From contig CAVYIM010000006.1 of NCBI GenBank assembly GCA_963768655.1, positions 64,001 to 128,000 of the forward strand: 64,000 nucleotides of DNA. Reading direction: 5' to 3'. Source of the stretch: an uncultured Chloroflexia bacterium. Lineage in GTDB: Bacteria > Chloroflexota > Limnocylindria > Limnocylindrales > CSP1-4. The notes beneath the pieces are model-generated. The model worked only from the letters and a program-made list of their open reading frames with translations, did not search any database and was not told where the DNA came from. Both the position numbers and the translations under genes were made by a program. Every line of letters begins with the position of its first letter. Positions within the stretch are counted from its first letter, which is position 1. This document shows, piece after piece, positions 7,632-48,154 of the stretch.

Positions 7632-7698
7632 AGGTGGCCTCGCCCGTGTGATTGTCCGGAGCGCTCGAAGACACTCAGCTGATTGGAGGTCGACCTCT

Positions 7699-28821: not shown

Positions 28822-28832
28822 GGGACGTGAAG

Positions 28833-29058
28833 CTACGCGAGGACGAGCACCTGGTCGTCTTCGGTGGCGGGAGCCTCGTCGGTCGGTGAGTCGGGCGCCG
28901 TCATGACGCCGACCTCGGCCGCTTCGTTCGGTGAGATGCCGGACGGTTCGGCCGCCGCCTGGGTGGCCAGCGATTCGGCTTCGTAGTCGCGCTTGCGCCG
29001 GCCGGAGAGCATCTCCACCGACGTGGCCACGACCTCGGTCTTCCAGTGGCGCGTGCCG
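28833..29058 (-). pseudogene. ssb: 3' half of an interrupted single-stranded DNA-binding protein gene
   Basis: GTRHWKTEVVATSVEMLS is the last OB-fold strand of SSB and joins in frame to the 5' pieces at 42254-42507 and 47430-48154. Confidence 0.9.
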
Positions 29059-29077
29059 TGATGGTAAGATACTCCCA
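29031..29077 (+). other. attL-type site (ssb arm - GT - element arm), site family A
   Basis: ssb similarity ends at CAGTGGCGCGTGCCG (29044-29058). The right arm GCCGTGATGGTAAGATACTCCCA is an imperfect inverted copy of the left arms of the six downstream sites. Confidence 0.85.
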
Positions 29078-29088
29078 CACGCAAGGAG
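29062..29088 (+). promoter_or_regulatory. Extended -10 element (TGgTAAGAT) and RBS (AAGGAG) of the recombinase gene; the -10 lies in the att arm
   Basis: TGG TAAGAT at 29062-29070, AAGGAG at 29083-29088, ATG at 29096. Confidence 0.5.
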
Positions 29089-29095
29089 CTTGCCG

Positions 29096-30326
29096 ATGCC
29101 CGCCTACGCCTACCTACGCAAGAGCGTCGTTCGCCAGGACGACCCCAAGAACAGCGCCGAAGCTCAAGAGGCCGCGGTGCGTGCCATGGCCGGCCGCTAC
29201 GGGGACGGTGACGGCCTGCGCATCCTCTCCGACTGGGACAAGTCCGGACGCCTCGGGCGGGCCGGCCGGCCGGGCTACGACGCGCTCTGGCGGGCGATCG
29301 AGGACGGCAGCTGCACGGCTCTCTACAGCTACAGCATGTCCCGCCTGGCCCGCTCGGTGGCGGAGCTGCTGCGCTTGTTCGAGGCCTGCACCGAGCGCCA
29401 TATCCCGATTCGGCTTGAGTCCGACGTGATAGACACCGCGACCGCGAGTGGGCGCATGGTGGCGGGCATCCTGGCCAACGTGGCGGCCTTCGAGGCCGAT
29501 GTTGCCGGCGAGCGGCTGCGGGCCGCCCTGTCTGCCAAGGCCGCGCGAGGCGAGCGCATCGGCACGGTGCTCTTCTACGGCGACCGGGCCGGCGAGGATC
29601 CCGCGGCGGTCCTGGCCGCGTTCCGGGAGGCCGGCAGCTACAGCGGCGCGGCCAAGCTGCTCAACGAGCGGGGCGTGAAGACGCGCAGCACCAACGGCCG
29701 GCGGACCGATGCGCGGCGGGTGTGGTGGCCGTCTTCGGTGCAGGTGATCATCCGCCGCCTCGACCCGTCCGTCCTGCCCCTGCGGCCCTCCAAGGGCGCG
29801 GCCGCCGGCGGTTCGGACTTCGTACTTGCCCGGCTGCTGCGCTGCCCTACGTGCGGCACGATGCTGACCGGGACGCGCGACCGCGACGGGCACCGGGTCC
29901 GCGACAGCTGCCGGCTCGGCACTGTCACGCCGCACCCGCGGATCAGCATTACCGAGTCCCACATCTTGCCGTCCATCCAGGCCGAGGCTGGCCGACCTGC
30001 GGACGCCCCGGCAGGTGGAGCATCAGTCGGGTGACGCGGCCAAGCGGGCCCAGCTCGAAGCCCGGCGGGCCAGGGTGCTCGACATGTACGAGGCTGGGCT
30101 CATCGACCGGGTCGACCGAGAACGCCGCCTACAAGCTGTCATGGACGGCGTGAGCCAGCTGGACGCGCAGCGCCTGGTGCTGGCCGTGCCCACGGTGGAC
30201 TGGTCGTGGACACCCAAGGCCCTAAACCCTGTGCTGCGGGCCCTGTTCGAGCGCATCGATCTCGACGCCGAGACCTTCGCTCCCGTCGGCTACAGATGGA
30301 CTGTCCCGGAGTGGCGCGCGGCGTAG
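29096..30326 (+). CDS. Large serine recombinase (resolvase, recombinase, zinc ribbon and coiled-coil domains), +1 frameshift near 29996
   Basis: YLRKS (catalytic Ser), SG...RPG, SRLARS, LLRCPTCG. The coiled coil (LEARRARVLDMYEAGLID) and LRALFERIDL continue in the 30015-30326 frame. Confidence 0.9.
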
Positions 30327-30366
30327 GGGCCAAGAAAAGCCAGCATCGACTTTCGGAGTACCCACG

Positions 30367-31472
30367 TCACTGCGGCCCTGGCTCGTGAGGGAGCGCCCCT
30401 CGTCTTCGGGCCCTGTAGTAGTCGGGGTTCCTGGCCCGCCACCGCGTCGCCGAGTCGAGCTGCGGGAGCGGGGTCTTCCGATCCGGACTGGGTGCTCTAC
30501 AAGCTGGGCAGTACGTCTTGCGGGTTGACCCGTAACTGCCTGACGGCGGTCTGCGCCGCGGTGTGTAGGGCAGTCCGCACCCGGAACACATAGCGAACCC
30601 AGGCTGTCCTGCAACAGCCAGCAGGAGTTCGAGGACCAGGCCACCGAATAGCGATCTGGTCCCCAGGTTGATCACGGGATCGCCTGACCCCGCGTCGCCC
30701 CAATCGATCACCGGACGGACCACTCCCATGGCGAGCCAAGTCCCTAGGATCGCCGCCAGTGCCTGACGCTGGCCTTCGAGCGTCGCGGGCCTGACCCAAA
30801 TCAGTGCCCCGGCATCTTCGACCAGCAACGGGGCGGGCTCGGGCCCGTCCTTGGGTTGGCCGGCCGGCATTGGCAGGATGACTATGCCAGTTAGCGGGTC
30901 CCATGCCGCCGGGCGGACGGTCTTGTCCTGACGCAGATGGCCGGCGAGCTTGTACACCGCGGCGACTTCTTCGATGATCCGGCGCCACAGACGCAGGGGC
31001 TCCCGCGTGACGGTCGGGGCGGGGCGATAACCGACCCATGGGGCGACCAGCTCACCGACCCACGGACTCGGATTAACCTCCGCCGTCCGGGCGGTCGCGC
31101 CGCGGTCGCCAGGCCGAGCAGACCGTATTGCCGCGCATAGGGGAGGATCGCGGCATCGCTCGGATCGGACGATAGTCGCAGGAAGTCGTCGAGGACGGCA
31201 CGGTGGGGAGCCATTGTCCGGCCGAACCGTGGCTCGCTAACCAGATAGTCGTCGTCAAGGACGACAGGTTCGCCCGCGACCTCCTGGTCGTTGACGATGA
31301 CCTGGACCTTCAGGCCAGGCGGCCCGCGGAAGACGGGTCCACCTGGGAAGGCGATCGTCCCGGAGGCCTCGGCCCTGACCAGCACAACTTTGGACGGGAC
31401 CAGCCACCCGGAACTGACCACGCGATCGCCGATCGGGTCGCCATTCACGTCGTGGCTGAGGCCGTCTGTCAT
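30367..31472 (-). CDS. Hypothetical protein with a C-terminal CxxC...CxxC zinc finger (CGNR-like), apparently frameshifted near 31080-31110
   Basis: YARQYGLLGL N-terminal part and CSGCG...YCPAC C-terminal part lie in different frames. Confidence 0.55.
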
Positions 31473-31481
31473 TAGATCCGC

Positions 31482-31487
31482 ATTATA
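31482..31487 (-). promoter_or_regulatory. -10 box TATAAT 9 nt upstream of the ATG at 31472 (near-leaderless mRNA)
   Basis: ATTATA on the + strand; no RBS in the gap. Confidence 0.5.
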
Positions 31488-31520
31488 TGTGAGCCGTTAC
31501 AGCGCCCGTAGTCTGAAGCC

Positions 31521-31736
31521 ATGACCAAGTCAGTTGACAGGGTGACAGTCGACGCAACGACCGGGTTCGGACTCAAGGTCCGGCGCCAATCCCTCGGCGT
31601 TCAGGCTCGGACCGTCGCGCAGCTCATGGGTGTGTCCCGGGCGCGAGTCGCTGCGATCGAGGCCTCGCGGTTTCCAACCCGGGCAGCTCGCGAACGCTAT
31701 CTCGAAGCCCTCGGTCGGGCGGCGGCTAGCCGATGA
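31521..31736 (+). CDS. XRE-family helix-turn-helix protein
   Basis: LKVRRQSLGVQARTVAQLMGVSRARVAAIE. Confidence 0.75.
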   Translation: MTKSVDRVTVDATTGFGLKVRRQSLGVQARTVAQLMGVSRARVAAIEASRFPTRAARERYLEALGRAAASR

Positions 31737-31957
31737 GCACCCCGATCGCGACGGACGTGTCGACGGCCAGGGCGGGCGACAAAGGCACACCGCTTGTTCA
31801 GACGCCCGGGCCGGTGCCTCTCGCCGCCCTCACGCCGACCCAGCGACAACTGGTGCTTGCCCTGATAAGGGCGTCGCGGGTTGGGGCAGATGGCGATCTC
31901 GTCCTGCTGGAGTCCGAGCAGCGTCCCGATGACATCGCACCGGAGGTTCACTCGTGA
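31733..31957 (+). CDS. Small hypothetical protein
   Basis: ATGA-coupled to the XRE gene; 74 aa. Confidence 0.5.
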   Translation: MSTPIATDVSTARAGDKGTPLVQTPGPVPLAALTPTQRQLVLALIRASRVGADGDLVLLESEQRPDDIAPEVHS

Positions 31958-31983
31958 CAGGTCGCTCCCGTTGCCGGCGAGCT

Positions 31984-32079
31984 TCGGGCAACCGCAGAAC
32001 CCACAACAAGCGTGGGAGGCCCCCGACGGCGGCAACGGCCAAGACGGCTCGGGCAACGTCCGAGGCGGGTTCGGGCAAT
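31984..32079 (+). repeat. Phased (TCG)GGCAA repeats, iteron- or operator-like
   Basis: GGCAA at 31987, 32031, 32052 and 32074 (spacings 44, 21, 22). Confidence 0.45.
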
Positions 32080-34123
32080 GTCTGAGCGGGCTGCGGCAAC
32101 GGCTGAGACCGCTTCAGCGGTTGATCGCGACGCGTCGCTCTCGGCCCTCTTGGCCGCTGGCGAGACGCGGAGCGAGGCGATCGCGGAAGCGCTGGGAGTC
32201 CCTGTCAGGACCGTTCGCTTCTGGCTCGGCGGGCTGCGTGATCAAGGTCTAGTCGAGATGCCGAGCCGGGGTACCTGGCGGATGACCGGAGCCGGAGCGA
32301 GGGCCGCCCTGGCCGCTGCGATCCCTGAACCGGTTGCCTCGCTTGACGCCATCGTCGGGCTGCCGCCCGAGCATCGCGCGATGCTCCGTCTCGTTGAAGA
32401 CGCGGTGGTCGCGCGGCGTGCCCTGGCCGAGTTCTATCCGGGGAACTGGCCCGGCTTCGTGCTCATGGGGCCCACCAAGACCGGCAAGACGTTGGTCGCG
32501 AGCCTCGCGGCGCGCCGGGTCGGCGAAGATCCAGGCGACGTCGTCAGGTTGCTGATGCTGGAGACACCCGGCAGCCTCCTGGGCCGCCGTATCCAGACCG
32601 GTGCCGAGACTTGGACGACGACGCCGAGTCCGCTTCTGCCGCTCTCGCTGGTCGTTCTCGACGAATATGACAAGTCATCGCCCGAGCTGCGTCAGGCCGC
32701 CTTCGGCTATCTGGCCGGCGCGTCGCGCTACCGATCCGAGGACGCCGTCCTGACGGTGAACGCGACGACGATCATCACTTTGAACGCCGAAGACGACCCG
32801 AGCCGGCTGCTCCCTGACTCATACCTGCGCCGTGCCGTCGTACTCGATACGACGCCTCTCGTTGGAGTCATGTTCGACATCGACGAGGTCGCGCGGGTGC
32901 TCTCCCGCGCCTCGCTGCCGACCATCGACCCCAACCTCGTCCCGCCTGCCTCGGAACTGTCGGAAGAAGCCCGGCGAGGCCTTCGTCTCCTCCTCCAGCG
33001 CTGCCTTACCGCCCGTGGCTGGGGCCTTGTGGATGTGGAGGCGATCAGTCGTCTTGCGCTTGGACGCTGGGCGGTTATGCCGGACGACCCCGAGGCCGCT
33101 GTTCTCGGGGTGGCGGCCGACTACCTCCTTGTCAGCTCAACAAGACCCGGACTCGTTCAGGCGGACTGGCCGGCGAGGCTGGAGGCCGTGCTCGGACGGG
33201 CAGCCTCCCCGATCGCGGAGACGCTCGCTGTGGCTCGGGCACGGCAGGCCTCGGTCGGGGAGCGTGCGGAGGAGGCGGATCGGGCGCAGCTCGACGCATC
33301 GCTCGCCCTGGCCGGCACCCGGGAGCGCATCATCGATGCTCTCGATCATGGCTTGCGCTCGGTCGCTCGTGGCCACGAGCTGACCGACGCGGATCGCGCG
33401 ACGATCGCCACTGCCCGCGGCAAGGCTCGGCTGTTGCGGGACGCGATCGGCGCTGCCAGAAGTCTCGGCGCCCTCGAAGATCTGGACCGCCGTCTCGACC
33501 AGGAGGTCTTGGTCCCGCTGATGACGGTCGCGAACATCGTCGACGCCCGACGTGGGGCCGCCGCCGAACAGCGGCGCGCCGAGCTGGATCGGCACCGCCG
33601 AGAGGTCGATCGCCGAGCGGCGGAGCGGGTCCAGGCACGTGCGGCGGAACAGGCCGCCAAGCGGCGCCACGCCGAACTGCAGGCCCTCTACAGGCGCACC
33701 ACCACTCGTCCCGGCGAGGATGTGCTCGCCGATCTGGTCGCCGCCGGTTGCATCGTCCAACGTCGCGAGCAGTATCAGGAGGAGACGATCGTCTCCATGG
33801 TCAACCGCTCATGGGTCGGCCGGAAGCTGCGAACACTCGGCGGCAATGGCGCGGTGGCGAGTCTGCCTCCGCCGCAGCCGTGGAACCCGCGGCAGCCCTG
33901 GACCCACTTGCAGCCGGCACCTGCCAGTTCGGAGCCGGAGCCGCGCTACGTGACCCGGACCCGAACCTGGCATGAGGACCGCGACGGCCGTCGCCGTGAT
34001 CCGAGCGACCTCGTCGCCTGGGGCAGCGAGCCGGTCTGTGCGGTGCTCCAAGCGGCGGCCGCCGCCGAAGAGCTGCCTCCGCTCACCCGGCTCGCGTCTG
34101 GCCGATGCGGCAGCAAGGTGTGA
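32078..34123 (+). CDS. wHTH plus AAA+ ATPase plus coiled-coil protein
   Basis: IAEALGVPVRTVRFWLGGLRDQGLV (wHTH), Walker A GPTKTGKT, Walker B LVVLDE. Confidence 0.75.
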   Translation: MSERAAATAETASAVDRDASLSALLAAGETRSEAIAEALGVPVRTVRFWLGGLRDQGLVEMPSRGTWRMTGAGARAALAAAIPEPVASLDAIVGLPPEHRAMLRLVEDAVVARRALAEFYPGNWPGFVLMGPTKTGKTLVASLAARRVGEDPGDVVRLLMLETPGSLLGRRIQTGAETWTTTPSPLLPLSLVVLDEYDKSSPELRQAAFGYLAGASRYRSEDAVLTVNATTIITLNAEDDPSRLLPDSYLRRAVVLDTTPLVGVMFDIDEVARVLSRASLPTIDPNLVPPASELSEEARRGLRLLLQRCLTARGWGLVDVEAISRLALGRWAVMPDDPEAAVLGVAADYLLVSSTRPGLVQADWPARLEAVLGRAASPIAETLAVARARQASVGERAEEADRAQLDASLALAGTRERIIDALDHGLRSVARGHELTDADRATIATARGKARLLRDAIGAARSLGALEDLDRRLDQEVLVPLMTVANIVDARRGAAAEQRRAELDRHRREVDRRAAERVQARAAEQAAKRRHAELQALYRRTTTRPGEDVLADLVAAGCIVQRREQYQEETIVSMVNRSWVGRKLRTLGGNGAVASLPPPQPWNPRQPWTHLQPAPASSEPEPRYVTRTRTWHEDRDGRRRDPSDLVAWGSEPVCAVLQAAAAAEELPPLTRLASGRCGSKV

Positions 34124-34258
34124 TGCGGGTTGATGGAGAAGGCTTCCGCCTATGGAGCTATGACCATCACAGGATGACACGACACCCCGTCAGAGACTCA
34201 CAATCGCCGAGGGCGAGAGGGTGGCTGGAGTTTGCATACTCAGCACGGATAGAGGCAT

Positions 34259-35584
34259 GTGAGCACCTACGAGCGAGGTCTACGTCCACTCAGGGCCGTC
34301 TTGAGCCTTGGCTTGGTCGCAGGTGCGCTGTGGGGCTGCAGCAATCTGGCTACACCGTCGTCATCGCCGGTGGCATCGAGCACAGCTGCGCCGACGGCAA
34401 CGGCCGGGTCGCGAGTTCCGACACCCGCGCCATCCACCTCTCCCTCGCCGACACCTGTTCCGACCCTGCCGAGCGGCAACTGGACCGGGCTCCACTGGAC
34501 CCGTGTTCAGACGACCGCTGCGGTCTGGATGACGCCTGCCATCTTGGGTGGGTCTTCGAAAGGGAACGTCACCGAGTCGGGTTGGTCTGTCTTTGGCTGG
34601 GACGACGGCTACGTCGCTTTCGACGTCGTCACCACGAAGTCGAAGAACGGTTCGAAGGTCACCGTCATCGACACGGAGCACTCGACCGACGGCATTTCAT
34701 GGTCCGCTGGAGGCTCTTTCACCCCTCCCTCGTTTACCCCTGACGTGCCGGATCAGCAGTCGCCAAGCGTCGACGGTATCGAAGAAGGACCAGTTGGTCT
34801 TCTCGTATACGACGACTACGACTGCGTCTGCGCGTGTCATTTCCCGACCATCCATCCGCTCGGGGCCTCGACGGACGGCGTCACCTGGCAGACGGTCCAG
34901 GGCGTCGTGGTGGGCGATTGGCTCGACGCCGGGTCGGCCGGCTACATCGTCACCGAGGGGGACCAAGTCGAAATCTCACAAGACGGCATCTCGTGGACCA
35001 GGACCAGACTGAGCGGCAAGGCGTTCGCAACGGTCGACTCCATCGACAGTGGAGCCTCATCTGCAGGCGGCTTCGTCATCACGAGCGAAACCTACGGGCC
35101 TCCGACCCAAGGGGCCATGTGCGTCCAGTTTCCGATTCCGATGAACCCCACGGTCTGGTTCTCGGCGGACGGGAAGAACTGGGTCCGGCAGATCCTGCCA
35201 GGCGGCATCGCCAAGGGTTACGGCAGCGCGACTGTGTGTCACATCAACGCGCATATCCTCCTCGCTCAGGAATGGGACGGTTCCGAACTGGATTGGACCT
35301 CGACCGATGGAGAGGCCTGGACAAGCGCGTCGACCGGCTTCTCCTGTGAGGGCATGCCGCTCGCGGGCCACTACCTCCTCGACTCGTTTGATCCCTACGG
35401 CAACTGGACAGTCGAAGTCCTTGGGCCCGATCTGCACTACGAAGCCCTCGCCGAGACCGGCGATGAGCCGAATTGGCACGACGTCTGGGCGGACCACGGC
35501 TGGGTCGATGCCCTGGGTCCGGCGGGACTGATCGTCTCTGATGGCCAGGGCGGTCTTTGGGTCGGTGTTCCCTTCGCGGGTTGA
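34259..35584 (+). CDS. Lipoprotein with BNR/Asp-box-like repeats
   Basis: Lipobox LWGC, Pro/Ser/Thr linker, repeated S-x-D-G-x-x-W (STDGISW, STDGVTW, SQDGISW, SADGKNW, STDGEAW). Confidence 0.75.
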   Translation: MSTYERGLRPLRAVLSLGLVAGALWGCSNLATPSSSPVASSTAAPTATAGSRVPTPAPSTSPSPTPVPTLPSGNWTGLHWTRVQTTAAVWMTPAILGGSSKGNVTESGWSVFGWDDGYVAFDVVTTKSKNGSKVTVIDTEHSTDGISWSAGGSFTPPSFTPDVPDQQSPSVDGIEEGPVGLLVYDDYDCVCACHFPTIHPLGASTDGVTWQTVQGVVVGDWLDAGSAGYIVTEGDQVEISQDGISWTRTRLSGKAFATVDSIDSGASSAGGFVITSETYGPPTQGAMCVQFPIPMNPTVWFSADGKNWVRQILPGGIAKGYGSATVCHINAHILLAQEWDGSELDWTSTDGEAWTSASTGFSCEGMPLAGHYLLDSFDPYGNWTVEVLGPDLHYEALAETGDEPNWHDVWADHGWVDALGPAGLIVSDGQGGLWVGVPFAG

Positions 35585-36188
35585 GGCGTGCAGGGCAATC
35601 GCGACGCGATTCAGGCGAACTACATCAGCCCTCCATCACACCTTGCTGCCGCGCCTGCCGTCTGGCTGTCGGGAACGGGCAAGTCCACGTCCCCAAGGTG
35701 CCCCGAAAGGGTGCCACCTCTGACTGCCAATTCCGTACTCAACTCCGGCCCGCCTGGGCGTGCACCGAAAAGGGGTCCTTGTGAGTGGGGGCGAGAAGAC
35801 TTGCGGCCGAGACAACAAGCTAGCCGGCGGAGGTCACGAGCGGCCGTCGCGAGACGAATGCCCAGCCGCTGATGGTGGTGCGCGAGACGAGGCGGGAGCT
35901 GATGGCAGAGCCGTCGCGGCCCGACCTAGTGAGTTGAGTTCAGGCACTGCCTATCAAGGGTTTGAACAGCTCGGCTGACGCGCTACTAGCTGTTCGAGCG
36001 ATCTCTTCCCAGTCAACGACGCGACTGACCGGCGGCTCACTCCCGAGAATGCGTCCTGCCTTGAGCACCCCCACTACAGAGCCTGCGGGCGGCGGTTGGC
36101 CCTGCGACCCTCCGGACGATGGGTGCAGCGTGGCCGGACCCCTTTCGCGGCATTCCAGGCTGGTTCAGGTCATCCCAATCACCCGTTC

Positions 36189-36232
36189 CGCTGCCTTCCA
36201 GCCTCTGTTAATCAAGAGGCTGGAAGGCAGCG
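36189..36232. repeat. Perfect 18-bp inverted repeat with an 8-bp spacer
   Basis: CGCTGCCTTCCAGCCTCT-gttaatca-AGAGGCTGGAAGGCAGCG. Confidence 0.9.
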
Positions 36233-36342
36233 TAGCATGTCGTCCTTGACCGTCCATCGTCTGACCATGTGGACCCGATCGACCACGGGCAATCGGTCAA
36301 TCTCTCGTCATCGGGGCGCGTAGCCCCTTACGCGAGGACTAG

Positions 36343-36870
36343 ATGAGGCCAACTATGCCGCAGGAGAGAGTACTCCTCGGCTCACCAGCCGAGCAGGTCC
36401 AATCCGATCTGGCGGCGACCATTGCTGCTGAGGCCCCTGTGCTACTCGCAGCTGCTCGACTGATCACGTCAAGCGAAGCCGAGGCGTGGGATGTCGTTCA
36501 GATTACGATTGAGATCGCCCTGCGCCGGAGAGGATCCCTTCGAGATCGTGGAGCTATTCGAGCCTGGCTGCTTACGATACTCACCCGTGAAGCCATGCGC
36601 TTCCGTCGGCGCGTCCGCGGGGTCATGTCAATTGAATTAGCCGAGGCACAAGCCCCCACCGTTCCGGGCCCAGGTGTCGAGCAGTTAGCGATCAGGCAGG
36701 CCTTGTCCCAGCTTCCACTCCGGACACGAACTGCTGTAGTCCTGCATCACATGGTAGGACTGTCAATAGCTGAGGTAGCCTCAGCTATGAACGTAAGTGA
36801 GAACACGGTGAAGTCTCAGATCAAGCAGGGGATATCTCGCCTGCGGGAGGCGCTTAGCGATGAATGGTGA
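36343..36870 (+). CDS. ECF sigma-70 factor
   Basis: EAWDVVQ, RAWLLTI, ALSQLPLRTRTAVVL and ENTVKSQI (regions 2 and 4). Confidence 0.85.
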   Translation: MRPTMPQERVLLGSPAEQVQSDLAATIAAEAPVLLAAARLITSSEAEAWDVVQITIEIALRRRGSLRDRGAIRAWLLTILTREAMRFRRRVRGVMSIELAEAQAPTVPGPGVEQLAIRQALSQLPLRTRTAVVLHHMVGLSIAEVASAMNVSENTVKSQIKQGISRLREALSDEW

Positions 36871-37459: not shown

Positions 37460-37461
37460 AC

Positions 37462-38640: not shown

Positions 38641-39066
38641 TTGGGTTCGTCCCCCAGCGATCCTGCACGTAGGGCCCATTCGGGCGAGGGTGGATCGCTT
38701 GACAGATACCGCAGCGAAGCCGGGGACGACAATCGGAATGCTTCCGTATGCCCGGAGCAGCAAGGTTCCCAGAGACGCCGCCGGCAGACGAGGCTAGCCG
38801 AAACCTATCTGGCTGTGATCCGGCTGGTGCTGTCGGCGTCGGACTACGCCGAACGGACGCACCCGATGGGTACGCTGGGCGCGCCACCGGAAGCGCCACA
38901 GTTCCCTAGCGACGACGAGCAGCGCCTTTCGTCAGCCTGCGATCACATGACCAAGCGTGACGGTTACTCCACGACCGAGGCTTGACCTAGAACAAAGGTT
39001 CTCTTAGTATTCCCACGTCGACTCTTCGGCCGCCTTTGCTGACGAGTAACGACGATACTCGAAGCT

Positions 39067-40480: not shown

Positions 40481-40484
40481 CCAG

Positions 40485-40527
40485 TACGACTAATTGGCGC
40501 TTAGACCCAGACGACCACGTTGTGGTA
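40485..40527 (+). other. attR-type site, family B
   Basis: TACGACTAATTGGCGCTTAGA-CCCAG-ssb sequence; the arm is 20/21 identical to 47980-48000. Confidence 0.8.
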
Positions 40528-40659
40528 TTCCGCGCGCTCTTTGCCGTTGCCGCGGAACTCGTTGGTCGCCACGGCAAATGTGGCGACGGATGACCCGCTG
40601 GCCAGCGATCGCAGCTCCGGATCGCGGGTCAGGCGGCCGGTCAGAAGGACCTTGTTCAC
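40506..40659 (-). pseudogene. ssb: Captured ssb 5' fragment (codons 1-51), with upstream DNA extending to about 40769
   Basis: [34 protein letters not shown]...YHNVVVW. Confidence 0.9.
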
Positions 40660-40825
40660 GGTCCTGGTCTCCTCTCGCGGCGCCGCTGTGTCGCGACGCC
40701 CTCTCTTGCGGCGGTACTCGAACCGTATCCCAGCCCTCTCTACCGACGCTCATCCGCGGCTTATCCGGGGCCGACGAAGCCTTCCACAGGCCGGAGCGGT
40801 TCGATCCCCCGCGGGACGCCACTCC

Positions 40826-41380
40826 TCAGTCGGGTTTGTCCGTCTGATCGGACCATATCGGCGAAGAGTCGCCAGCCAATCCGTGATGGTCCGCAACCTG
40901 ACCACGCGGGTCGGACCATCGAGCCGGCGATGAGCCCGCAGTCTGATCCGAGGGACGGCGGCGATTCTCCAAAACGAACCGATAGAACCACCTGAGCCAG
41001 AGCGCCTCGCATGCGAAGAACGCGACCGTGAAGAGCCGTAGCAACAAACCAGGGGTGTAATACGGGTTGCTGAAAGGCAGGTTCATGACTAACGCAAACC
41101 CATTTGCCACCGCGAAGAGGATGACGTTCTCCGCCCCAGCGTATAGGTGGTTGGGGTGCGGACCACCCGAGTGCCGGTTCCTCGTCAACAGCCATCCAAG
41201 CACGGTTCCTGGATGGTCGGGGTTGTTCCTCTCGGCCCAGAAACCGACTACGTGCGGCAGATAGTGCTCGTCCAGCAGGTGGAAGGACAGGGCGAACCCG
41301 ACCGAGGACCATGGAATCGTGAAGGCCCCGAACAGGAGCATGAACCCGCCGACGGGTAGGTCGTCCGAACCTACGATCAC
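40826..41380 (-). CDS. Membrane protein (cassette gene)
   Basis: GAGGAG RBS; several hydrophobic segments. Confidence 0.6.
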   Translation of the reverse strand: MIVGSDDLPVGGFMLLFGAFTIPWSSVGFALSFHLLDEHYLPHVVGFWAERNNPDHPGTVLGWLLTRNRHSGGPHPNHLYAGAENVILFAVANGFALVMNLPFSNPYYTPGLLLRLFTVAFFACEALWLRWFYRFVLENRRRPSDQTAGSSPARWSDPRGQVADHHGLAGDSSPIWSDQTDKPD

Positions 41381-41457
41381 CGCTCCTCCTCAGTGCGAAT
41401 GGCCGGTCCATGATAGTCCCGCCGGTTCTCGCAGAACCGTCCCGGTCCCCGCTCCGC

Positions 41458-41484
41458 ACACTGGCGCGTGCCGCGGTCGTCGCC
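41458..41484 (+). other. attR-type site A1 (outer left arm decayed)
   Basis: ACACTGGCGC-GT-GCCGCGGTCGTCGCC. Confidence 0.8.
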
Positions 41485-41583
41485 GCCTGGGTCAACGTAC
41501 CTGTGGGGTATGGGGCGGTTCCAGGCACAGGGGGGCCCTTCCGGGTACTTGAAGCCGACGCGGCCGGGTCTCAAGATCCGGAT

Positions 41584-42084
41584 GTGGCACACGATCCGGC
41601 GACTCCATCCATCCCGCCCGAAGCCCGCGGTGCGCTGGTCCTCTTCGTCGATGACGAGCCCTTGCGTCGGGCCTTCGCCATGAAAGTGCTCGGACAGGCT
41701 GGGTTCGTCACGGAGACGTTAGGAGACGGCGCCCCAGCGGTCGAGCGCCGCTTCCAAGACCCCGTGCCCGCTGTCATCGTCATGAACTGGCAGATGTTCG
41801 GAATGCACGGAGACGTGCGAATGGACGGAGACGTGGCCATCAGGCTCATACGGGAGCGAGAGGCCGCCGAAGGGCTGCCGCGCATGCCCATTCTCTTCGA
41901 AAGCGGCGACATTCTGAGTTCCAAGGTCAGGTCGGCCGACGCAGACGGATTGCTGGCTATGCCCTGCAATGTCGATCAACTGGTCGAAGCCGTCCTCCAG
42001 GTGGGCTGGCCCTCGCGGGCTGAGTCGCCCTGTGAGGCGGAGGCGTCAGCCCCGTCGGAATTCCTTGGCGACAGCTCAGCCTGA
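41584..42084 (+). CDS. Stand-alone receiver (REC) domain protein, atypical (cassette gene)
   Basis: VLFVDDEP, VIVMNWQM, MDGDVAIRLIR and MPILF; start codon uncertain. Confidence 0.8.
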   Translation: MAHDPATPSIPPEARGALVLFVDDEPLRRAFAMKVLGQAGFVTETLGDGAPAVERRFQDPVPAVIVMNWQMFGMHGDVRMDGDVAIRLIREREAAEGLPRMPILFESGDILSSKVRSADADGLLAMPCNVDQLVEAVLQVGWPSRAESPCEAEASAPSEFLGDSSA

Positions 42085-42230
42085 CTCCTGAGGCGAGCGC
42101 CGAGCAGCAGTCTCGGAGGCGACACCTGGCCCGCCCCGTTGGTGGCCACCCGCGCGTACGTTGCCCGACGGGTGGCACGCGTTTCTGGGTACATTCGCCA
42201 TCGCTGGCGCACGACGGGATTACTTGCTGA

Positions 42231-42272
42231 TGGGTCTAACTTGACAGTGGCGCGTGCCGCGGTCGTCGTCCC
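42231..42272 (+). other. attR-type site A2
   Basis: TGGGTCTAACTTGACAGTGGCGC-GT-GCCGCGGTCGTCGTCCC. Confidence 0.85.
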
Positions 42273-42507
42273 ACTGGCGAGTCTGCAGGCGACCCTCGAT
42301 GGCGACCTGCTGACCCTTGCCCAGATACTGGCCGCAGACCTGCGCCAGGCGGTCCCAGACGACCACGTTGTGGTATTCCGCGCGCTCTTTGCCGTTGCCG
42401 CGGAACTCGTTGGTCGCCACAGCAAATGTGGCGACGGATGACCCGCTGGCCAGCGATCGCAGCTCCGGATCGCGGGTCAGTCGGCCGGTCAGAAGGACCT
42501 TGTTCAC
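42244..42507 (-). pseudogene. ssb: Captured ssb 5' half (codons 1-88), site B unoccupied, upstream DNA extending to about 42617
   Basis: [10 protein letters not shown]...[25 protein letters not shown]. Confidence 0.92.
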
Positions 42508-42847
42508 GGTCCTGGTCTCCTCTCGCGGCGCCGCTGTGTCGCGACGCCCTCTCTTGCGGCGGTACTCGAACCGTATCCCCGCTCTCTCTACCGGCGCTCA
42601 TCCGCGGCTTATCCGGGCGACGGCGAAACCCGACGCGGCCATTCGACCTAGCCCCTGCTCCGCTGGTCGCCGACGATGCCGGCCCCGCGCCAGCCAGTCG
42701 AGCGGCTGTGTCGGGGGCCATAGACCCCGGTGGCAAAATGTGCGCTGTGCACGGGGGGCTTGGACACGAGGCCCACACACTGGCCGCCGGGACCGCGCCG
42801 AGCTACTGGCGAGACCGACCCGCATGGTCAATCGCGGGAGGTTCCCG

Positions 42848-43213
42848 ATGCGCTTCATCGAGATCAACGGCTTCTGCATCCGGCCCGACAAGCAGACCGA
42901 GTTCCAGCAGTGGGTCATCGCCAACGAGGCGCGGCTCAAGCGTGCGTACCCGCAGGGGTCCGAGTTCGGTGGCATCTTCGGAGTGGTCTACAGCTCTGAC
43001 AAGAGCGGCGGCGGATGCTACTGGCTAGAAACTCACGACAGCTACGGGGCTATTGACCTGAGCGCCGCTGTCTCAAAGGATCCGACCAGCGAGATGGCCA
43101 ACGTGATGAAGGAGTTCGTGGCATTCCTCGATCCGGATCGGAACGCGGGCTGGAGCCACCACCTGCTCAAGTCCGTCGTTGACGCCACCGTGTTCGACAT
43201 GCCCGCGAGCTGA
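42848..43213 (+). CDS. Hypothetical protein, possibly dimeric alpha-beta barrel/NIPSNAP-like (cassette gene)
   Basis: GGGAGG RBS, 121 aa, host-like codon usage. Confidence 0.65.
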   Translation: MRFIEINGFCIRPDKQTEFQQWVIANEARLKRAYPQGSEFGGIFGVVYSSDKSGGGCYWLETHDSYGAIDLSAAVSKDPTSEMANVMKEFVAFLDPDRNAGWSHHLLKSVVDATVFDMPAS

Positions 43214-43451
43214 AGTCGTGCGTGTCTGAATGGTCGATTCTCTGAGGCGTGGAGGTCGGCCCTGAGTCGCGCACGCAGTGGTCGCGCCGACCAGTCCAGG
43301 CAATCCCACAGTCAGGCCGGGTGAGGATAAGCCGCGCCCGCTAAGCGGCCCTCGCTTCGCTCCTCCCGGCCCCGCTCCGCTGGTCGGCTGCGCCGTGGCA
43401 GCAAGACCGGCCACGTCGGGGGCCAGCTGGGCACGTGGGTCACTTCTAGCG

Positions 43452-43491
43452 GTGGTCAAACCTAACACTGGCGCGTGCCGCGGTCGTCGCC
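43452..43491 (+). other. attR-type site A3
   Basis: GTGGTCAAACCTAACACTGGCGC-GT-GCCGCGGTCGTCGCC. Confidence 0.85.
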
Positions 43492-43545
43492 GACGTTCCT
43501 GTCCGGCCGGTTCGAGCGGATACTTTGGAGGTTGAGCATCTCGGC

Positions 43546-44397
43546 CTAACCTCCCAGCAAACGCGGCTGCATCGGCACGGGGAACGGCCTGCTGAGCAGG
43601 TAGCCCTGCCCGAAGTCGACCTCTCGATCCTGCAGAGCCAGCAGGTCCTTGCGGTTCTCGATCCCCTCGGCGATGGTCTGGGCGCCGATTCGGCGGCTGA
43701 ACGAGACGAACGCCTCGACCAGGGCCTTCTTCGCCTCGGCGTCCTTGTTGCCGATGCCCTGGACGATCTCCTTGTCGATCTTGATGATCGAGGGCTCCAG
43801 CGCGGCGATGACGGTGAAGCTCGCGTAGCCGGCACCGGCGTTGTCGACGGCGAAACCGAAGCCCAGGTCACGAAGGGCGCGGACCTGCTTCTTCATGTGC
43901 GGGACATCGTGGATCGCCTGACGCTCGATGCACTCGATCACTATCTGATCCGGCGAGAGGCCGACTCCACGGACGCGCTCTGCCAGGGCGCTGGCCTCGA
44001 ACTGGGGCGCCAGGAGGCTCGCTGGCAGGACGTTGATGCCGAACCGCATTCGCTGTCCAGCCGAAGCCGGTTCCACGACCTGGGCAATCCGAGTCAGCGT
44101 GGCTTCGACGATGAAGGAGTCGAGATCCACCTCACGCTTGGCCGCGACGGCCGCCTCCACGACATCGGTGATGGACTGGGATCCCATGCCGTGGCTCAGG
44201 CGGAACAGGCACTCCCATTCATGCGCCTTCAGGGTCGCGAGGTCCACGATCGGCTGGAACTCCACGCGGTGCTCGTGCAAGGCGAAGAACTGCGAGAGCA
44301 AGTCGGAACCGGCCTCTTCTTGGGTCTCGCCTTGGCCGATGCGATCGCCCCCCGATGTCTGCTCCACCGCCCTGTGTGATGCCCTGAAGAAGCGCAC
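43546..44397 (-). CDS. Stand-alone EAL domain protein (cassette gene)
   Basis: FQPIVDL, ECLFR, IECIE, FAVDNAGAGYAS, IKID, IAEGIE and GQGYL. Confidence 0.9.
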   Translation of the reverse strand: MRFFRASHRAVEQTSGGDRIGQGETQEEAGSDLLSQFFALHEHRVEFQPIVDLATLKAHEWECLFRLSHGMGSQSITDVVEAAVAAKREVDLDSFIVEATLTRIAQVVEPASAGQRMRFGINVLPASLLAPQFEASALAERVRGVGLSPDQIVIECIERQAIHDVPHMKKQVRALRDLGFGFAVDNAGAGYASFTVIAALEPSIIKIDKEIVQGIGNKDAEAKKALVEAFVSFSRRIGAQTIAEGIENRKDLLALQDREVDFGQGYLLSRPFPVPMQPRLLGG

Positions 44398-44642
44398 GGT
44401 GCCTCCTCACCTACGACCCCCGCGGCGTGCACCCTCACCGGGAAGACGAGACCGGCCAATCTCAAGGGCCCGGAGGTCTCAGTTCGTGGCCGCCTCGTGC
44501 CGGTTCAGGCGTCTAGGGTACAAGATCGTCCGTGATGAGCCGACCCCGCCGGCACTGGAAGCGCCCAGTCTCGCCCCGGTCCGCTCCGCTGGTTGGCTAA
44601 GTCGTGACAGCTAGACCGGCTGCGTCGGGGGACTCCAAGCCA

Positions 44643-44682
44643 TGGGTGAAACCTAACACTGGCGCGTGCCGTGGTCGTCGTC
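44643..44682 (+). other. attR-type site A4
   Basis: TGGGTGAAACCTAACACTGGCGC-GT-GCCGTGGTCGTCGTC. Confidence 0.85.
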
Positions 44683-44837
44683 TCCATGGGCTCCAGCTCG
44701 GATGGAGGCGGCAAGGAGTAACGCAGTAGCCGCTGGGGTTCTGCCTCGCGTACGGCACGGGTGGGCGGGTGCCGCGCAAGGGCAGCAGACTATCCTCTAG
44801 AGTGGATCGGGTCAGGCGAAGCAACGGAGGAACAAGT

Positions 44838-45104
44838 GTGAGCGGCGACGCGGTGATCGCAGTCGTGGCCGGGGCCTTCTTCTTCGTCCTCCAGTCTCCC
44901 ATGAGGTGGCTCCGCAACGATCCGCACGCCTTTCGGAACTCGGCAGCGGCAGCTGCTGCATTTGCCACCGCGTGGTTCGTCGCGACCGACCTTCTGCCAG
45001 GCAGCAACGCGCGGATCGTCCTGATCCTGATCCTGATCATGGCCGCGGTGCTGGCCGCGACCAGTCGCTACTGGTTGCCCCGCGTTCGGCGACTACGGAG
45101 CTGA
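44838..45104 (+). CDS. Small three-TM membrane protein (cassette gene)
   Basis: GGAGG RBS, GTG start, three hydrophobic segments. Confidence 0.65.
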   Translation: MSGDAVIAVVAGAFFFVLQSPMRWLRNDPHAFRNSAAAAAAFATAWFVATDLLPGSNARIVLILILIMAAVLAATSRYWLPRVRRLRS

Positions 45105-45240
45105 GGCGGTCGTTCTCTCGCTGCCAGTCTGTCAGCCCTCACTCGCCCGCTGCCTCAGCACCCCCACCGAGACGAAACCCGTGGCAATCCCTCAGTCTGG
45201 CCACGTGGCAAGCCGAGCGGCTGCGCGGGGCCTGACGGCG

Positions 45241-45280
45241 TGCGTCTAGCCAAACACTGGCGCGTGCCGCACTCGTCGCC
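45241..45280 (+). other. attR-type site A5
   Basis: TGCGTCTAGCCAAACACTGGCGC-GT-GCCGCACTCGTCGCC. Confidence 0.8.
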
Positions 45281-45527
45281 CGCGATCCGGCGTGGTCCAG
45301 CAACTGCGTCGAGGCCTCGCGTTCAGCCGTTTGCAGGATGCGCGCGGGCACGGCGAGTGTCAGGTGGATGGCCGCATCGTTCGAGCGATGGAGCGTCGAG
45401 CCCGTTGAGGCGGCACCATTCGGCACTTTGAGGCTCGGCTTGGGTCCGGCACAGTACGGCCAGGATCCGACCTGGCGCGGCGACGTGCCGCTCGGACGGG
45501 GATGAAGCTTGCCAGAGGAGGCGTCCG

Positions 45528-47414
45528 GTGGCAGGTCAGGACATCGAGCCTACGTCGGCCTTCGAGACTCGTTGGACTGTCGTTCGCGTCGAGAGGGGGT
45601 TGCCCGGTGTCCGTGCGGGCGACACTCTATCGTTCGAGCGCTCGGACTCTGAGATCACCGTGCTGAAGGCCGGTGCAGGGGTAGTCACCCGGCTATCACC
45701 GCCTGCCTCATTCCAGGTGGCGAGGTCCGAGACTGACCCGGACCTCGGTGAATGGCAGGTCGTTCATGACGGCCAGCGACTTGCAGTTCTGAAGCCGCGC
45801 CCACGTCTCTCTGCACAGGTGCGAGGCCAGGCCCCCACCGGAGTGAGGAAGGATGCTGGCGCGCAGTGGGTTCGTGTGTGCCTGAACTGCCACTCGCTCA
45901 ACTACGCCTGGTCTACGTGGTGTTGGGGCTGCGGAGCTCCGTCCTCGTCGTTCGGACCCGCGTTTCAGGCTCGTGGGCACCCGACCCCACCCCCACCGGG
46001 AGCCTCCAAGACCGTCGCCCCGGGGTGGGATCTCCCGGCGAGTACGAAGCCGAACGCGCTGCGGGGGGCTGCGCGCCCCAACGAGCTGAGCACGGCCGCC
46101 GCTGCGCCTCTCTATGACCCCGAGCCCAGCCTGTTCGGTGTTGCTCCCCCCATTGTCACGCCTGCCAGCAGCGCAACGACCTGGGCCAAGTACCTCCGCG
46201 TGATCGTGGGCTTCGTGGTGCTGGCTGTTCTCGGGTTGTACCGGGTTGGGAGTAGCGCCCCTGAGCCCAGCTCCTTCCCCATAACCAGCCCCTTCCCCAT
46301 GAGCGCCATGTGGTCGTTTGGTGCCGACCATACCGCGACCCTGCTGTCCGACGGCCGCGTGCTCGTCGCCGGGGGATTGGACCAAGACGACAACACCCTC
46401 TACTCCGCCGATATCTACGACCCCGTGAGCGGCACATTCAGCCCGACCGGCTCGATGACCACGGCTCGGGACTACCACACTGCGACACTGCTGTCCGACG
46501 GTCGCGTGCTCATCACCGGGGGTTTGGACCAAGACGGCATCGCGCTCTCCACCGCCGATATCTACGACCCGACGAGCGGCACTTTCAGCCCGACCGGCTC
46601 CATGTCCACCGCGCGAACGTTCGACACCGCGACCCTGCTCCGCGATGGCCGCGTGCTCGTGGCCGGAGGTGAAGACCAGGACGGCAACCGTCTAGCCTCT
46701 GCCGAGATCTACGACCCCGTGAGCGGCACTTTCAGCCCGACCGGCTCGATGGCCACGGCTCTGGACGACCACACCGCGACGCTGCTCCGCGATGGCCGCG
46801 TGCTCATCGCCGGGGGTTTGGACCAAGACGGCGACGCGCTCTCCTCTGCCGAGATCTACGACCCGACGAGCGGCACTTTCAGCCTGACCGGCTCGATGAT
46901 CACGGCTCGGGACTGCCACACCGCGACCATGCTGTCCGACGGTCGCGTGCTCATTGCCGGAGGTTTCGACCAAGACCGCAACGCGCTCTCCTCTGCCGAG
47001 ATCTACGACCCGACGAGCGGCACTTTCAGCCCGACCGGCTCGATGGCCACGGCTCTGGACGACCACACCGCGACGCTGCTCCGCGATGGCCGCGTGCTCA
47101 TCGCCGGGGGTTTGGACCAAGACGGCGACGCGCTCTCCTCTGCCGAGATCTACGACCCGACGAGCGGCTTCTTCAGCCTGACCGGCTCGATGATCACGGC
47201 TCGGGACTGCCACGCCGCGACGCTGCTGTCCCACAGCATCGTGCTCATTACCGGGGGTTTGGACCAGGGCGGCAGCCCGCTCTCCTCTGCCGAGACCTAC
47301 GACCCGATTCCCGGCATGTTCAGCGCGACCGGCTCGATGACCTTCACTTACCACAGACACACTGCCACGGCGCTCTCCACGACTGCGTCAGGGGGCCCGT
47401 TGGGGCTGGGATGA
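45528..47414 (+). CDS. Zinc-ribbon, TM and Kelch-repeat protein (cassette gene)
   Basis: CLNC...CWGCG; one TM; seven HTATLLxDGRVLIAGG...AEIYDP repeats; the stop codon lies inside att site A6. Confidence 0.85.
   Translation: MAGQDIEPTSAFETRWTVVRVERGLPGVRAGDTLSFERSDSEITVLKAGAGVVTRLSPPASFQVARSETDPDLGEWQVVHDGQRLAVLKPRPRLSAQVRGQAPTGVRKDAGAQWVRVCLNCHSLNYAWSTWCWGCGAPSSSFGPAFQARGHPTPPPPGASKTVAPGWDLPASTKPNALRGAARPNELSTAAAAPLYDPEPSLFGVAPPIVTPASSATTWAKYLRVIVGFVVLAVLGLYRVGSSAPEPSSFPITSPFPMSAMWSFGADHTATLLSDGRVLVAGGLDQDDNTLYSADIYDPVSGTFSPTGSMTTARDYHTATLLSDGRVLITGGLDQDGIALSTADIYDPTSGTFSPTGSMSTARTFDTATLLRDGRVLVAGGEDQDGNRLASAEIYDPVSGTFSPTGSMATALDDHTATLLRDGRVLIAGGLDQDGDALSSAEIYDPTSGTFSLTGSMITARDCHTATMLSDGRVLIAGGFDQDRNALSSAEIYDPTSGTFSPTGSMATALDDHTATLLRDGRVLIAGGLDQDGDALSSAEIYDPTSGFFSLTGSMITARDCHAATLLSHSIVLITGGLDQGGSPLSSAETYDPIPGMFSATGSMTFTYHRHTATALSTTASGGPLGLG
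46329..47370 (+). repeat. Seven 150-bp intragenic Kelch repeats with high DNA identity
   Basis: 50-aa unit, with a near-exact 300-bp two-unit duplication. Confidence 0.85.
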
Positions 47415-47448
47415 ACCTAACACTGGCGCGTACCGCGGTCGTCGTCCC
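47407..47448 (+). other. attR-type site A6, the right end of the element
   Basis: TGGGATGAACCTAACACTGGCGC-GT-ACCGCGGTCGTCGTCCC, followed by continuous ssb sequence. Confidence 0.88.
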
Positions 47449-47534
47449 ACTGGCGAGTCTGCAGGCGACCCTCGATGGCGACCTGCTGACCCTTGCCCAG
47501 ATACTGGCCGCAGACCTGCGCCAGGCGGTCCCAG
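47424..47534 (-). pseudogene. ssb: Middle segment of the resident ssb, between sites A and B
   Basis: [36 protein letters not shown]. Confidence 0.9.
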
Positions 47535-48005
47535 GTGCCACGTTGTGGTACCCGCCCGGAGCGCTGGTGACAGAAAGACATATGCTCCGGCCGAGGCGCC
47601 AGCGCTAGACTCTGGTCAGAGAGCGGCCCCTCCCAAGGCTCGCTCCGCGACGAAAGGGGTTCGATCCGATGGCAGGTAAGTTCGTGCTGTCCAAGGCCAA
47701 GAACGGCAAGTTCCACTTCTCGCTCAAGGCTGGGAACGGCGATATCATCGCCACGTCCCAGATGTACGACAGCAAGGCCGGTGCCCTCAACGGCATCGAG
47801 TCTGTCAAGAAGAACGCGTCGGGGGCTACGGTCGACGATCAGAGCGACAAGCCTGCCGAGTAAGCCCCGAGGCCCCGACCGCAGCCAGTCACCATCCCGT
47901 AGTCCTCTCTCGCGTCCTGCAGGCCCTCGCTGTGTTCGGCGGGGGCCTCTCTTATCCCACCCACCCGAGTGTGGCGAAATACGACTAAGTGGCGCTTAGA
48001 CCCAG
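47530..48005. mobile_element. 471-bp non-autonomous mini-cassette inserted at ssb site B
   Basis: Flanked by a CCCAG direct repeat (47530-34 and 48001-05) with imperfect inverted arms; removal restores the ssb sequence exactly. Confidence 0.8.
47669..47863 (+). CDS. YegP/DUF1508 family protein
   Basis: [47 protein letters not shown]. Confidence 0.9.
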
Positions 48006-48154
48006 ACGACCACGTTGTGGTATTCCGCGCGCTCTTTGCCGTTGCCGCGGAACTCGTTGGTCGCCACAGCAAATGTGGCGACGGATGACCCGCTGGCCAG
48101 CGATCGCAGCTCCGGATCGCGGGTCAGTCGGCCGGTCAGAAGGACCTTGTTCAC
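48001..48154 (-). pseudogene. ssb: 5' segment of the resident ssb (codons 1-51)
   Basis: GTG start at 48154 after GAGAGGAG; [10 protein letters not shown]...YHNVVVW. Confidence 0.9.

Follow-up and report, generated by a model that had tools for sequence, protein, structure and literature searches.

An array of serine-recombinase att sites in an accessory ssb gene of a Limnocylindrales genome

How can a single recombinase gene, with one left attachment site beside it, come to be followed by a row of right-hand attachment sites? The question is raised by a 64,000-nucleotide stretch of DNA (the window; positions 64,001 to 128,000 of contig CAVYIM010000006.1, assembly GCA_963768655.1) from an uncultured Chloroflexia bacterium of the order Limnocylindrales. 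Here an accessory ssb gene is divided by a gene for a large serine recombinase (LSR) and by att sites in tandem: one attL against five strong and one weak attR-type site, a count that departs from the one-attL, one-attR rule. The initial annotation described the locus as an integron-like array of gene cassettes.

The source genome is a metagenome-assembled genome (MAG) of 3.37 Mb, 88.6% complete and in 9 contigs. The relatives compared with it are likewise MAGs of Chloroflexota, Candidatus Limnocylindrales; 151 genomes were searched, including 50 of the same genus beside the source genome. The anatomy of the sites, all of the junction types, the variable cargo and the adjacency of the LSR gene are established. 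Taken together, the sequences favour, at a probability of roughly 55%, a composite island within the accessory ssb, in which modules without an integrase, together with one integrase element, would have accreted in tandem at an att junction that renews itself.

Anatomy of the att sites

The target is an accessory ssb; a housekeeping-like ssb with 40% identity lies elsewhere on the contig. The 3' part of the target gene, coding for the C-terminal 72 amino acids (28836-29051, minus strand, found by tblastn), is the fixed anchor of the locus and bears the B arm; relatives have this gene uninterrupted and in synteny. It is followed by the attL (29031-29077, plus strand), which consists of the ssb B arm, a GT dinucleotide at 29053-29054 and a P' arm at 29055-29077, the sole arm of P' type in the window. 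The GT is taken as the crossover position from the point at which sequence identity ends. Beside the attL lies the LSR gene of about 400 codons (29096-30323, plus strand), which aligns in two frames with intact homologues of 398 and 407 amino acids and carries one frameshift at about 29985-30000. Its N-terminal resolvase domain (PF00239, 91.6 bits) lies in the open reading frame (ORF) starting at 29096. The intact 398-residue homologue matches both PF00239 (97.4 bits) and PF13408 (Zn_ribbon_recom, 25.5 bits against a cut-off of 25.3); no PF07508 match was found in the integrase, and its PDB sequence matches are confined to the catalytic domain.

The six attR-type sites, A1 to A6, all lie on the plus strand in direct orientation (A1, 41445-41484; A2, 42231-42270; A3, 43452-43491; A4, 44643-44682; A5, 45241-45280; A6, 47407-47446). 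Their 21-nt cores start at 41462, 42248, 43469, 44660, 45258 and 47424, which reproduces the annotated positions for the G of the GT (41468, 42254, 43475, 44666, 45264 and 47430) and the GT-to-GT spacings of 786, 1221, 1191, 598 and 2166 bp. In A2 to A6 a 23-nt element-type (P) arm is followed by the GT and a 15-nt ssb-type (B') arm, with two core mismatches in A5. A1 has the core and the 15-nt arm, and its left arm is degenerate, with 10 nt of the P arm. The 15-nt ssb-type arm is present at six of six sites, in direct orientation and on the same side of the anchor. What follows it differs. The ssb match stops 15 nt past the GT in A1, A3, A4 and A5 (four copies, as had been remarked at the outset), and the arm is written b' in these sites. 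The right arm of A6, the attR that adjoins the resident gene, continues into ssb codons 50-84; that of A2 continues into a full ssb 5' half (codons 1-84) and ∼110 bp of upstream DNA.

The motif is tied to this locus and is not dispersed genome-wide. A 16-nt probe of arm and core, with up to three mismatches allowed, gave 5 matches where 0.36 were expected, and 0 of 100 shuffles reached 5. Over the whole genome, a 24-nt core with up to five mismatches has 17 matches: six are the array (0-2 mismatches), one lies at C7:81969 with a single mismatch, and the remaining ten differ at 4-5 positions. From 18 P-type sites a weight matrix was derived; over both strands of the genome it returned six matches of at least 20 bits, namely five array sites and C7:81972. 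The 19.8 bits of A1 reflect a left arm with just 10 matching nt: that arm scores −14.8, and those of the other five sites +21 to +29. The one full site outside the array (L001, G000:C7:72000-91999, at ∼9973) lies between identical inverted copies of a 441-aa ORF (7417-8742, plus, and 10166-11491, minus), with no ssb or integrase nearby; the ORF pair is probably a pair of insertion sequences. A window ORF of 441 aa (34259-35584) was considered as a further copy and rejected, being unique in the genome and secreted-protein-like.

The two long arms are related to each other. The P arm agrees with the reverse complement of P' at 13 of 23 positions, a level reached by 0.14% of random 23-mers (mean 5.8, sd 2.1), so that the left arm of the array sites does mirror the arm beside the LSR gene, as the first reading of the sequence had proposed. 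The reconstructed attP is pseudo-palindromic, with a central, non-palindromic GT. Across 18 distinct non-ssb sites from the window and its relatives, conservation extends from −23 to +16 around the GT and falls to background beyond; positions −16 to +14 served to select the sites, and the independent part of this result is −23 to −17, +15, +16 and the sharp drop. A long P arm joined to a shorter B-type arm agrees with serine-integrase half-sites as reported, with 25 bp for attP and ∼10 bp less for attB (PMC3783163). When the 60-nt sites are folded as DNA they do no better than shuffled sequences (z = 1.49, −0.67, 0.25, −1.20, 0.05 and −1.00). Some P arms contain a −35-like TTGACA; the idea of a promoter there was given up, as a −10 element is absent downstream.

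Modules and junctions at ssb and in relatives

The intervals carry genes for a receiver (REC) protein, an EAL protein, a Kelch protein and a 111-aa ORF, and a membrane-protein gene stands before A1. This last ORF (40826-41380, minus) has a weak DUF2339-like match under the cut-off. The REC ORF (41410-42084) overlaps A1, and its receiver domain (PF00072, 31.2 bits against a cut-off of 30.2) spans 41638-41994 on the plus strand. Between A2 and A3 lie an ssb 5' copy, a c-di-GMP-II-GAG riboswitch aptamer (RF03169; 42745-42827, plus; 63.8 bits, E 8e-11) and, 3' of it, a 121-aa ORF (42848-43213). The EAL-domain gene (43546-44397, minus) follows A3, the 111-aa ORF (44769-45104, plus) follows A4, and the Kelch-repeat gene (45528-47414, plus) follows A5, with its stop codon within the P arm of A6. 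Neither the 111-aa ORF nor the membrane protein has a significant family match. The annotated rule of one unrelated ORF per interval holds for the REC, EAL, Kelch and 111-aa genes and fails between A2 and A3, where an ssb copy and a riboswitch are also housed. ORF lists and family searches agree with the annotation on the membrane-protein gene before A1 and on the presence of ORFs on both strands; one module has its own riboswitch leader, and no common promoter leads into the array.

The EAL gene is an 84% nucleotide paralogue of G000:C4:807208-807936, a gene present in all 50 other genomes of the genus, and has the look of a core gene that was captured or duplicated, not of foreign cargo. The Kelch gene has six tandem units of 147 bp, 78-85% alike (46328-47362), and Kelch paralogues recur in the arrays of four relatives (G001, G006, G009 and G010). 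No counterpart of the REC, membrane or 111-aa modules was found among the listed DNA matches to the 50 same-genus genomes, 58 weaker matches lying outside that list.

The resident ssb continues beyond the array in two pieces: codons 50-84 (47432-47536, minus) and codons 1-51 (48002-48154), the latter running with its upstream region to 48264 (minus). Two extra ssb 5' copies stand inside the island. One comprises codons 1-84 (42256-42507; 42256-42617, minus, with its upstream region; SSB domain 106 bits), and the other codons 1-51 (40507-40659; 40480-40769, minus, with its attR-type site-2 junction and upstream DNA). They are 98% identical to each other (42354-42617 against the copy at 40480-40769) and 84% identical to the resident sequence at 48001-48264; the best match is to another genome of the same genus (G012:C11, 95% over 318 bp). 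Because they resemble that genome at 95% and the resident gene at 84%, the sequences mark these copies as imported or captured, foreign alleles and not local duplicates of the resident gene.

The second copy also displays a second kind of att junction, which occurs at 40480-40506, 47535-47560 and 47985-48012. The resident ssb is cut at codon 51 by a 464-bp piece (47546-48009, plus) with a DUF1508 gene (47669-47863), bounded by junctions B2-b2' and P2-B2'; the ssb copy at 40506 begins at the same codon-51 point, with the same left junction. In a relative (G001:C8, L066) an 11-kb element with one attL and one attR uses this point as its att site; its integrase belongs to a second lineage, 48% identical to the first. 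A third lineage, about 40% identical, uses a site ∼20 bp further on (G016:C10, L071). Yet another genome (G005:C68, L083) holds a 344-bp piece with a small membrane ORF at site 2. Both this piece and the DUF1508 piece have neither an integrase nor a P2' arm, and their left junction b2' mimics the ssb arm B2'. The recurrence of the pattern at site 2, with another integrase lineage, argues that the mechanism is general. If the sites are nothing more than fossils, the locus still documents clearly a competition of three integrase lineages for a single accessory ssb.

Relatives supply the remaining junctions. The 21-nt core, with up to two mismatches, occurs in 54 of 151 genomes, including 33 of the 50 of the same genus (source genome excluded), and in 0 of 42 in a small-genome sister family. 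Integrase matches at E ≤0.001 occur in 37 of 151 genomes, with identities of at least 60% only in G019 (two copies), G049, G047 and G011. The ssb paralogue lies genus-wide between conserved flanks (at 27.6 and 50.4 kb in the window), from 0.6 to ∼8 kb away from them. At least 12 genomes of the genus have the intact junction B-B' in their syntenic ssb, and joining the window's attL to A6 restores the ssb sequence that is uninterrupted in at least 12 relatives; with the half-site anatomy, this upholds the description of the array sites as attR-type hybrids of an LSR element in ssb. The junction B-P' with an integrase is found in the window and in G049, whose 8.6-kb element sits in ssb with one attL and one attR. 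In G019 a 3.7-kb integrase element is flanked by b-P' and P-b' at an attB-like site upstream of a riboswitch, and the empty counterparts of that site are found in G037 and G009. The LSRs of these two ordinary elements of G019 and G049, each with a single attL and a single attR, are 76-77% identical to that of the window.

P-B' junctions with ssb number 11 distinct sites, and P-b' junctions without ssb number 18. The B-b' junction, with 15-17 nt identical to B', was found in G048:C112, G009:C1 and metagenome contigs. In one such contig of 8.6 kb the ssb is cut by 1.44 kb holding a single 390-aa ORF, between B-b' and P-B' and with no LSR; the arrangement of B-b', 1.44 kb with one ORF, and P-B' is seen in L014 and L106, and G048:C112 likewise has a module between these junctions without an LSR. 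Four metagenome contigs read ssbC-B-b', 494 bp, P-b', 506 bp, P-b' and riboswitch. Arrays occur in G006:C39 (three sites in 1.6 kb), G001:C9, G048:C75 and G005:C68. Cargo differs between genomes, as the initial annotation predicted: elsewhere it includes Imm5-like, GYD, Kelch, NYN and DUF2339 genes, and of ten ORFs tested five belong to a family and five do not.

The expectation that the intervals would be free of integrase remnants was borne out: tblastn with three integrase queries found none between 30.4 and 48.3 kb (best E 0.011), and the only Resolvase-domain match in the region is the gene at 29096. The weak matches (E 0.011 at ∼38.7 kb and E 0.038 within the Kelch gene) were judged spurious. 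A search of genome contigs for related loci with the LSR gave 162 pattern matches, none confirmed.

The sites are also linked to riboswitch leaders. A weakly conserved block, GCTGCGYSGGGGCC, lies ∼10 nt to the left of the P arm and is found again in the riboswitch leader, accompanied by motifs that resemble decayed sites. At least 8 sites in relatives have a c-di-GMP-II-GAG aptamer 53-104 nt downstream, and a promoter-like region adjoins the b' arm; the window and 21 loci together have 14 aptamer matches above threshold. The EAL and REC genes of the array, beside such aptamers, suggest a second-messenger theme. RF03169 aptamers near att sites were also seen at L062, L063, L067, L072, L076, L077, L079, L080, L082, L101 and L111, and the genes behind these aptamers are unrelated (GYD, Kelch, DUF2339 and an ACT-like ORF). 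The motifs CCCCGCTCCGCTGGTCG and GCTGCGTCGGGGGCC at 42655-42720, 43365-43425 and 44574-44634 resemble decayed sites of core plus b'; they bound a riboswitch unit that is 93% common to G005:C35.

How the array may have grown

From these junctions we infer every recombination step, the order of events and the mobilisation in trans. A module would have the form of a 15-nt B'-type half-site, the cargo and a 23-nt P-type half-site, so that its ends, once circularised, would form a P-GT-b' site. The LSR, acting in trans, would join this circle to the B arm of the 3' ssb anchor, beside which the module would enter. The junction B-b' left after insertion would again be attB-like, because b' copies B', and the next module or element could enter there. 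Older modules would be shifted toward the 5' side of ssb, each behind its own P-GT-b'. The LSR element, with a normal pseudo-palindromic attP, would have arrived last in this genome, producing the attL. Recombination of the attL with any downstream P-type site could then give composite circles, which would account for the foreign ssb 5' copies inside the array. In this genome the array is probably frozen, because the local LSR is frameshifted.

The points that speak for accretion are the specificity of the site, the half-site anatomy, the intact attB and ordinary elements of relatives, the presence of the predicted junctions, the variable cargo, the lack of remnants, the repetition of the pattern at site 2, a low G+C content (57-64% at 34-41.5 kb and 65-68% in the array; the flanks have 70-74%) and precedent. 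The variable-endpoint excision proposed in the initial annotation also fits the data. G006 has an intact ssb, a riboswitch unit and then a P-B' ssb fragment, which is the layout expected of the window after recombination between attL and A2, and A2 bears the foreign ssb allele.

Several observations weigh against accretion. A1 is without a proper P arm, the 98%-alike foreign ssb 5' pieces require an additional, unexplained step of duplication or capture, and the 494- and 506-bp metagenome modules have no convincing ORF. The local LSR is broken, and the genome has no other close copy: in the search, its five further genes with a Resolvase domain were unrelated. G006 has arrays but no LSR match at E ≤0.001, so arrays can persist as fossils. 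No module was found with GT breakpoints at two array positions or in two genomes: L001 and L076 share only 67 bp at the site, and L014 and L083 only 73 bp, in the right flank. The proposed step, P-b' with B-B', pairs an attR-type with an attB-type site and lies outside the reported activity of canonical LSRs, which by the account in PMC3783163 recombine attP with attB, or attL with attR when a directionality factor is present, 'other pairings' being inert. Excision or circle junctions were not seen in the single public run that contains this DNA (at very low depth, 0.06 of sampled words, as contigs), which is uninformative on excision either way; its Logan contigs match 28800-48400 in 20 short pieces, of which 14 have an identity of at least 99% and none has a joint at an att site, and the only letters between joint sides fall within the Kelch repeats.

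The same features could be explained in other ways. One tentative, rather unlikely explanation is an integron-like platform on which the LSR would routinely capture single-gene P-GT-b' circles, excise them and change their order, each individually, with the ssb 3' anchor as attI. Capture would extend to attB-like sites in c-di-GMP-II-GAG leaders; a ~400-aa LSR would join attR-type with attB-type sites without a directionality factor, or would recombine identical sites, and at least two LSR lineages would run cassette sets in one gene. The reaction would be freely reversible and the cassettes shufflable, because products and substrates are of the same type. Modules of mostly one gene and 0.5-2.2 kb, sharp conserved boundaries in 18 distinct sites, integrase-less insertions of one gene between B-b' and P-B', the same logic at the second att site and cargo that varies between genomes would all suit such a platform. 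It is harder to reconcile with the lack of circles and of any module in two places with GT breakpoints, with a reaction beyond known LSR selectivity as given in PMC3783163, with ORFs in both orientations and no common promoter into the array, and with units that are not all single genes, since the A2 interval holds ssb, a riboswitch and a gene, and the 29-40 kb part is multi-gene. Somewhat less likely again are fossil scars, left where full-size LSR elements repeatedly entered ssb and the attB-like sites of riboswitch units and then lost their bodies by deletion, the sites being now inert. The G019 element in just such a riboswitch-leader site, the decayed motifs flanking the riboswitch unit, the degenerate A1 and the arrays of G006 without a close LSR agree with this. 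Simple decay of full elements is nevertheless disfavoured, because its expected traces are both missing, namely P' arms at left junctions and ssb remnants whose length is random: every non-ssb site ends at +16, integrase-less modules have B-b' and not B-P' left junctions, and integrase remnants were not found.

There are two further explanations. The motif might belong to a gene family under riboswitch control, as a regulatory repeat or a repeat of the leader, its likeness to att sites being incidental and recombination having no part in it, and its position upstream of aptamers in relatives, with b' next to a promoter-like region, is what such a repeat would show. This is improbable: 0 of the 6 window sites are directly followed by an aptamer, the core is that of attL and attB, P mirrors P', and occupied and empty pairs of sites exist. 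Least probable of all is an assembly artefact, with repeats collapsed or chimerically joined. A MAG in 9 contigs and 88.6% complete, with 264-bp repeats at 98% identity, would be open to such an error; comparable structures are nevertheless found in independent assemblies (G005, G006, G001, G048 and 12 stretches of metagenome), the repeats span no more than 40-264 bp, and the single-run Logan contigs match several pieces exactly.

Neighbourhood, known systems and meaning

Between the LSR gene and the array lies the body of the integrase element or elements (30324-40479), mostly made up of unknown ORFs, with an ECF sigma factor gene at 36343-36870. In its low-G+C part, the ORF at 39737-40480 has a pPIWI-associated nuclease domain (PF18165, 42 bits) and may be the remnant of an Argonaute-type defence locus; near it a 433-aa ORF (37462-38763, minus) has no family. 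Past the 5' end of the resident ssb follow syntenic RCC1-like genes: two neighbouring RCC1-repeat ORFs (48292-48783 and 48793-49950) with a stop between them, syntenic with G006 and G039, are probably one gene split by TAG.

The initial annotation did not recognise a described system here. For this particular array that agrees with the literature consulted on LSR and integron-like systems, on serine recombinases with ssb, attB and tandem sites, and on Limnocylindrales mobile elements, in which (supplements excluded) no description of it was found. Tandem serine-recombinase islands as such are known, so the claim does not stand in its general form. The closest description is that of the Dehalococcoides ssrA islands, likewise in Chloroflexota and in tandem at a single-copy gene. 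As reported in PMC3146451, each is bounded by a 20-bp repeat of its target, in front of which stands a conserved 15-bp motif that is not target sequence; a gene for the CcrB-like serine recombinase DsiB adjoins attL, and the cargo varies; 15 islands without an integration module are read there as cis-mobilisable through accretion. By that account the Dehalococcoides target is the 3' end of ssrA, which is kept intact, and the islands are multi-gene, with a six-gene integration module and two serine recombinases. Here the target lies inside an accessory ssb, and that gene is split; one LSR of ~400 aa accompanies modules of 0.5-2.2 kb, mostly of a single gene, the one ssb offers three sites to three LSR lineages, and the sites are linked to a riboswitch leader.

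A second precedent comes from SCCmec, the staphylococcal cassette chromosome mec, and ACME, the arginine catabolic mobile element, whose modules at orfX are bounded by 15-bp repeats; according to PMC7029739, ccrAB mobilises an ACME element without ccr, and SCCmec was measured to excise both by itself and jointly with ACME. SCCmec, ACME and COMER at rlmH (orfX) share with the ssb array a serine-recombinase system (there CcrAB), one anchor and recombinase-less members, and their alternative endpoints would be matched by the excision proposed here; in the source cited (PMC7029739) they belong to another phylum, use another target and have large modules, and their recombinase is probably of another family.

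Ccr recombinases tolerate non-canonical pairs of sites. Accretion is familiar, too, from ICEs, the integrative and conjugative elements, and from cis-mobilisable elements (CIMEs). In the Streptococcus thermophilus ICESt1 family, as described, att-flanked elements without an integrase are stacked with an integrase-bearing one and mobilised in cis, but by tyrosine-recombinase chemistry and with a long identity segment in all of the att sites.

Canonical serine-integrase elements (A118, Bxb1 and phiC31), as characterised in PMC3783163, likewise have an LSR gene by attL, a pseudo-palindromic attP, a 2-nt crossover and long P and short B arms. Their one-attL, one-attR form occurs in G049 and G001, whereas the window has one attL, five or six attR-type sites and integrase-less modules whose left junction mimics B'. 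Integrons are alike in their small, mostly single-gene modules, one conserved site, one adjacent recombinase and variable content. They differ in having the tyrosine recombinase IntI, attI and folded attC sites, with promoterless cassettes in one orientation behind the cassette promoter Pc; at ssb the enzyme is of the serine type, the 40-bp sites are duplex-type half-site hybrids with no fold, and genes lie on both strands with no common promoter. With a serine recombinase, non-folding sites, no common promoter and ORFs in both orientations, the ssb array falls outside the integrons.

What sets this locus apart is the target in the interior of ssb, the single small integrase, modules of near-integron size, the several integrase lineages and the link to riboswitch leaders. 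It extends serine-recombinase accretion islands beyond Dehalococcoides and the staphylococci to another class of Chloroflexota, with units almost as small as those of integrons. If the modules are mobilised as proposed, the locus would be a compact natural case of a serine integrase that acts on hybrid (attR-type) sites, unlike the textbook enzymes. Such a hybrid-site reaction, if true, would be new serine-integrase enzymology and would bear on directionality control and on the engineering of reversible or iterative 'landing pad' systems. For these bacteria, the association of mobile modules with the orphan riboswitch c-di-GMP-II-GAG and with EAL and REC genes offers a handle on the function that the riboswitch controls.

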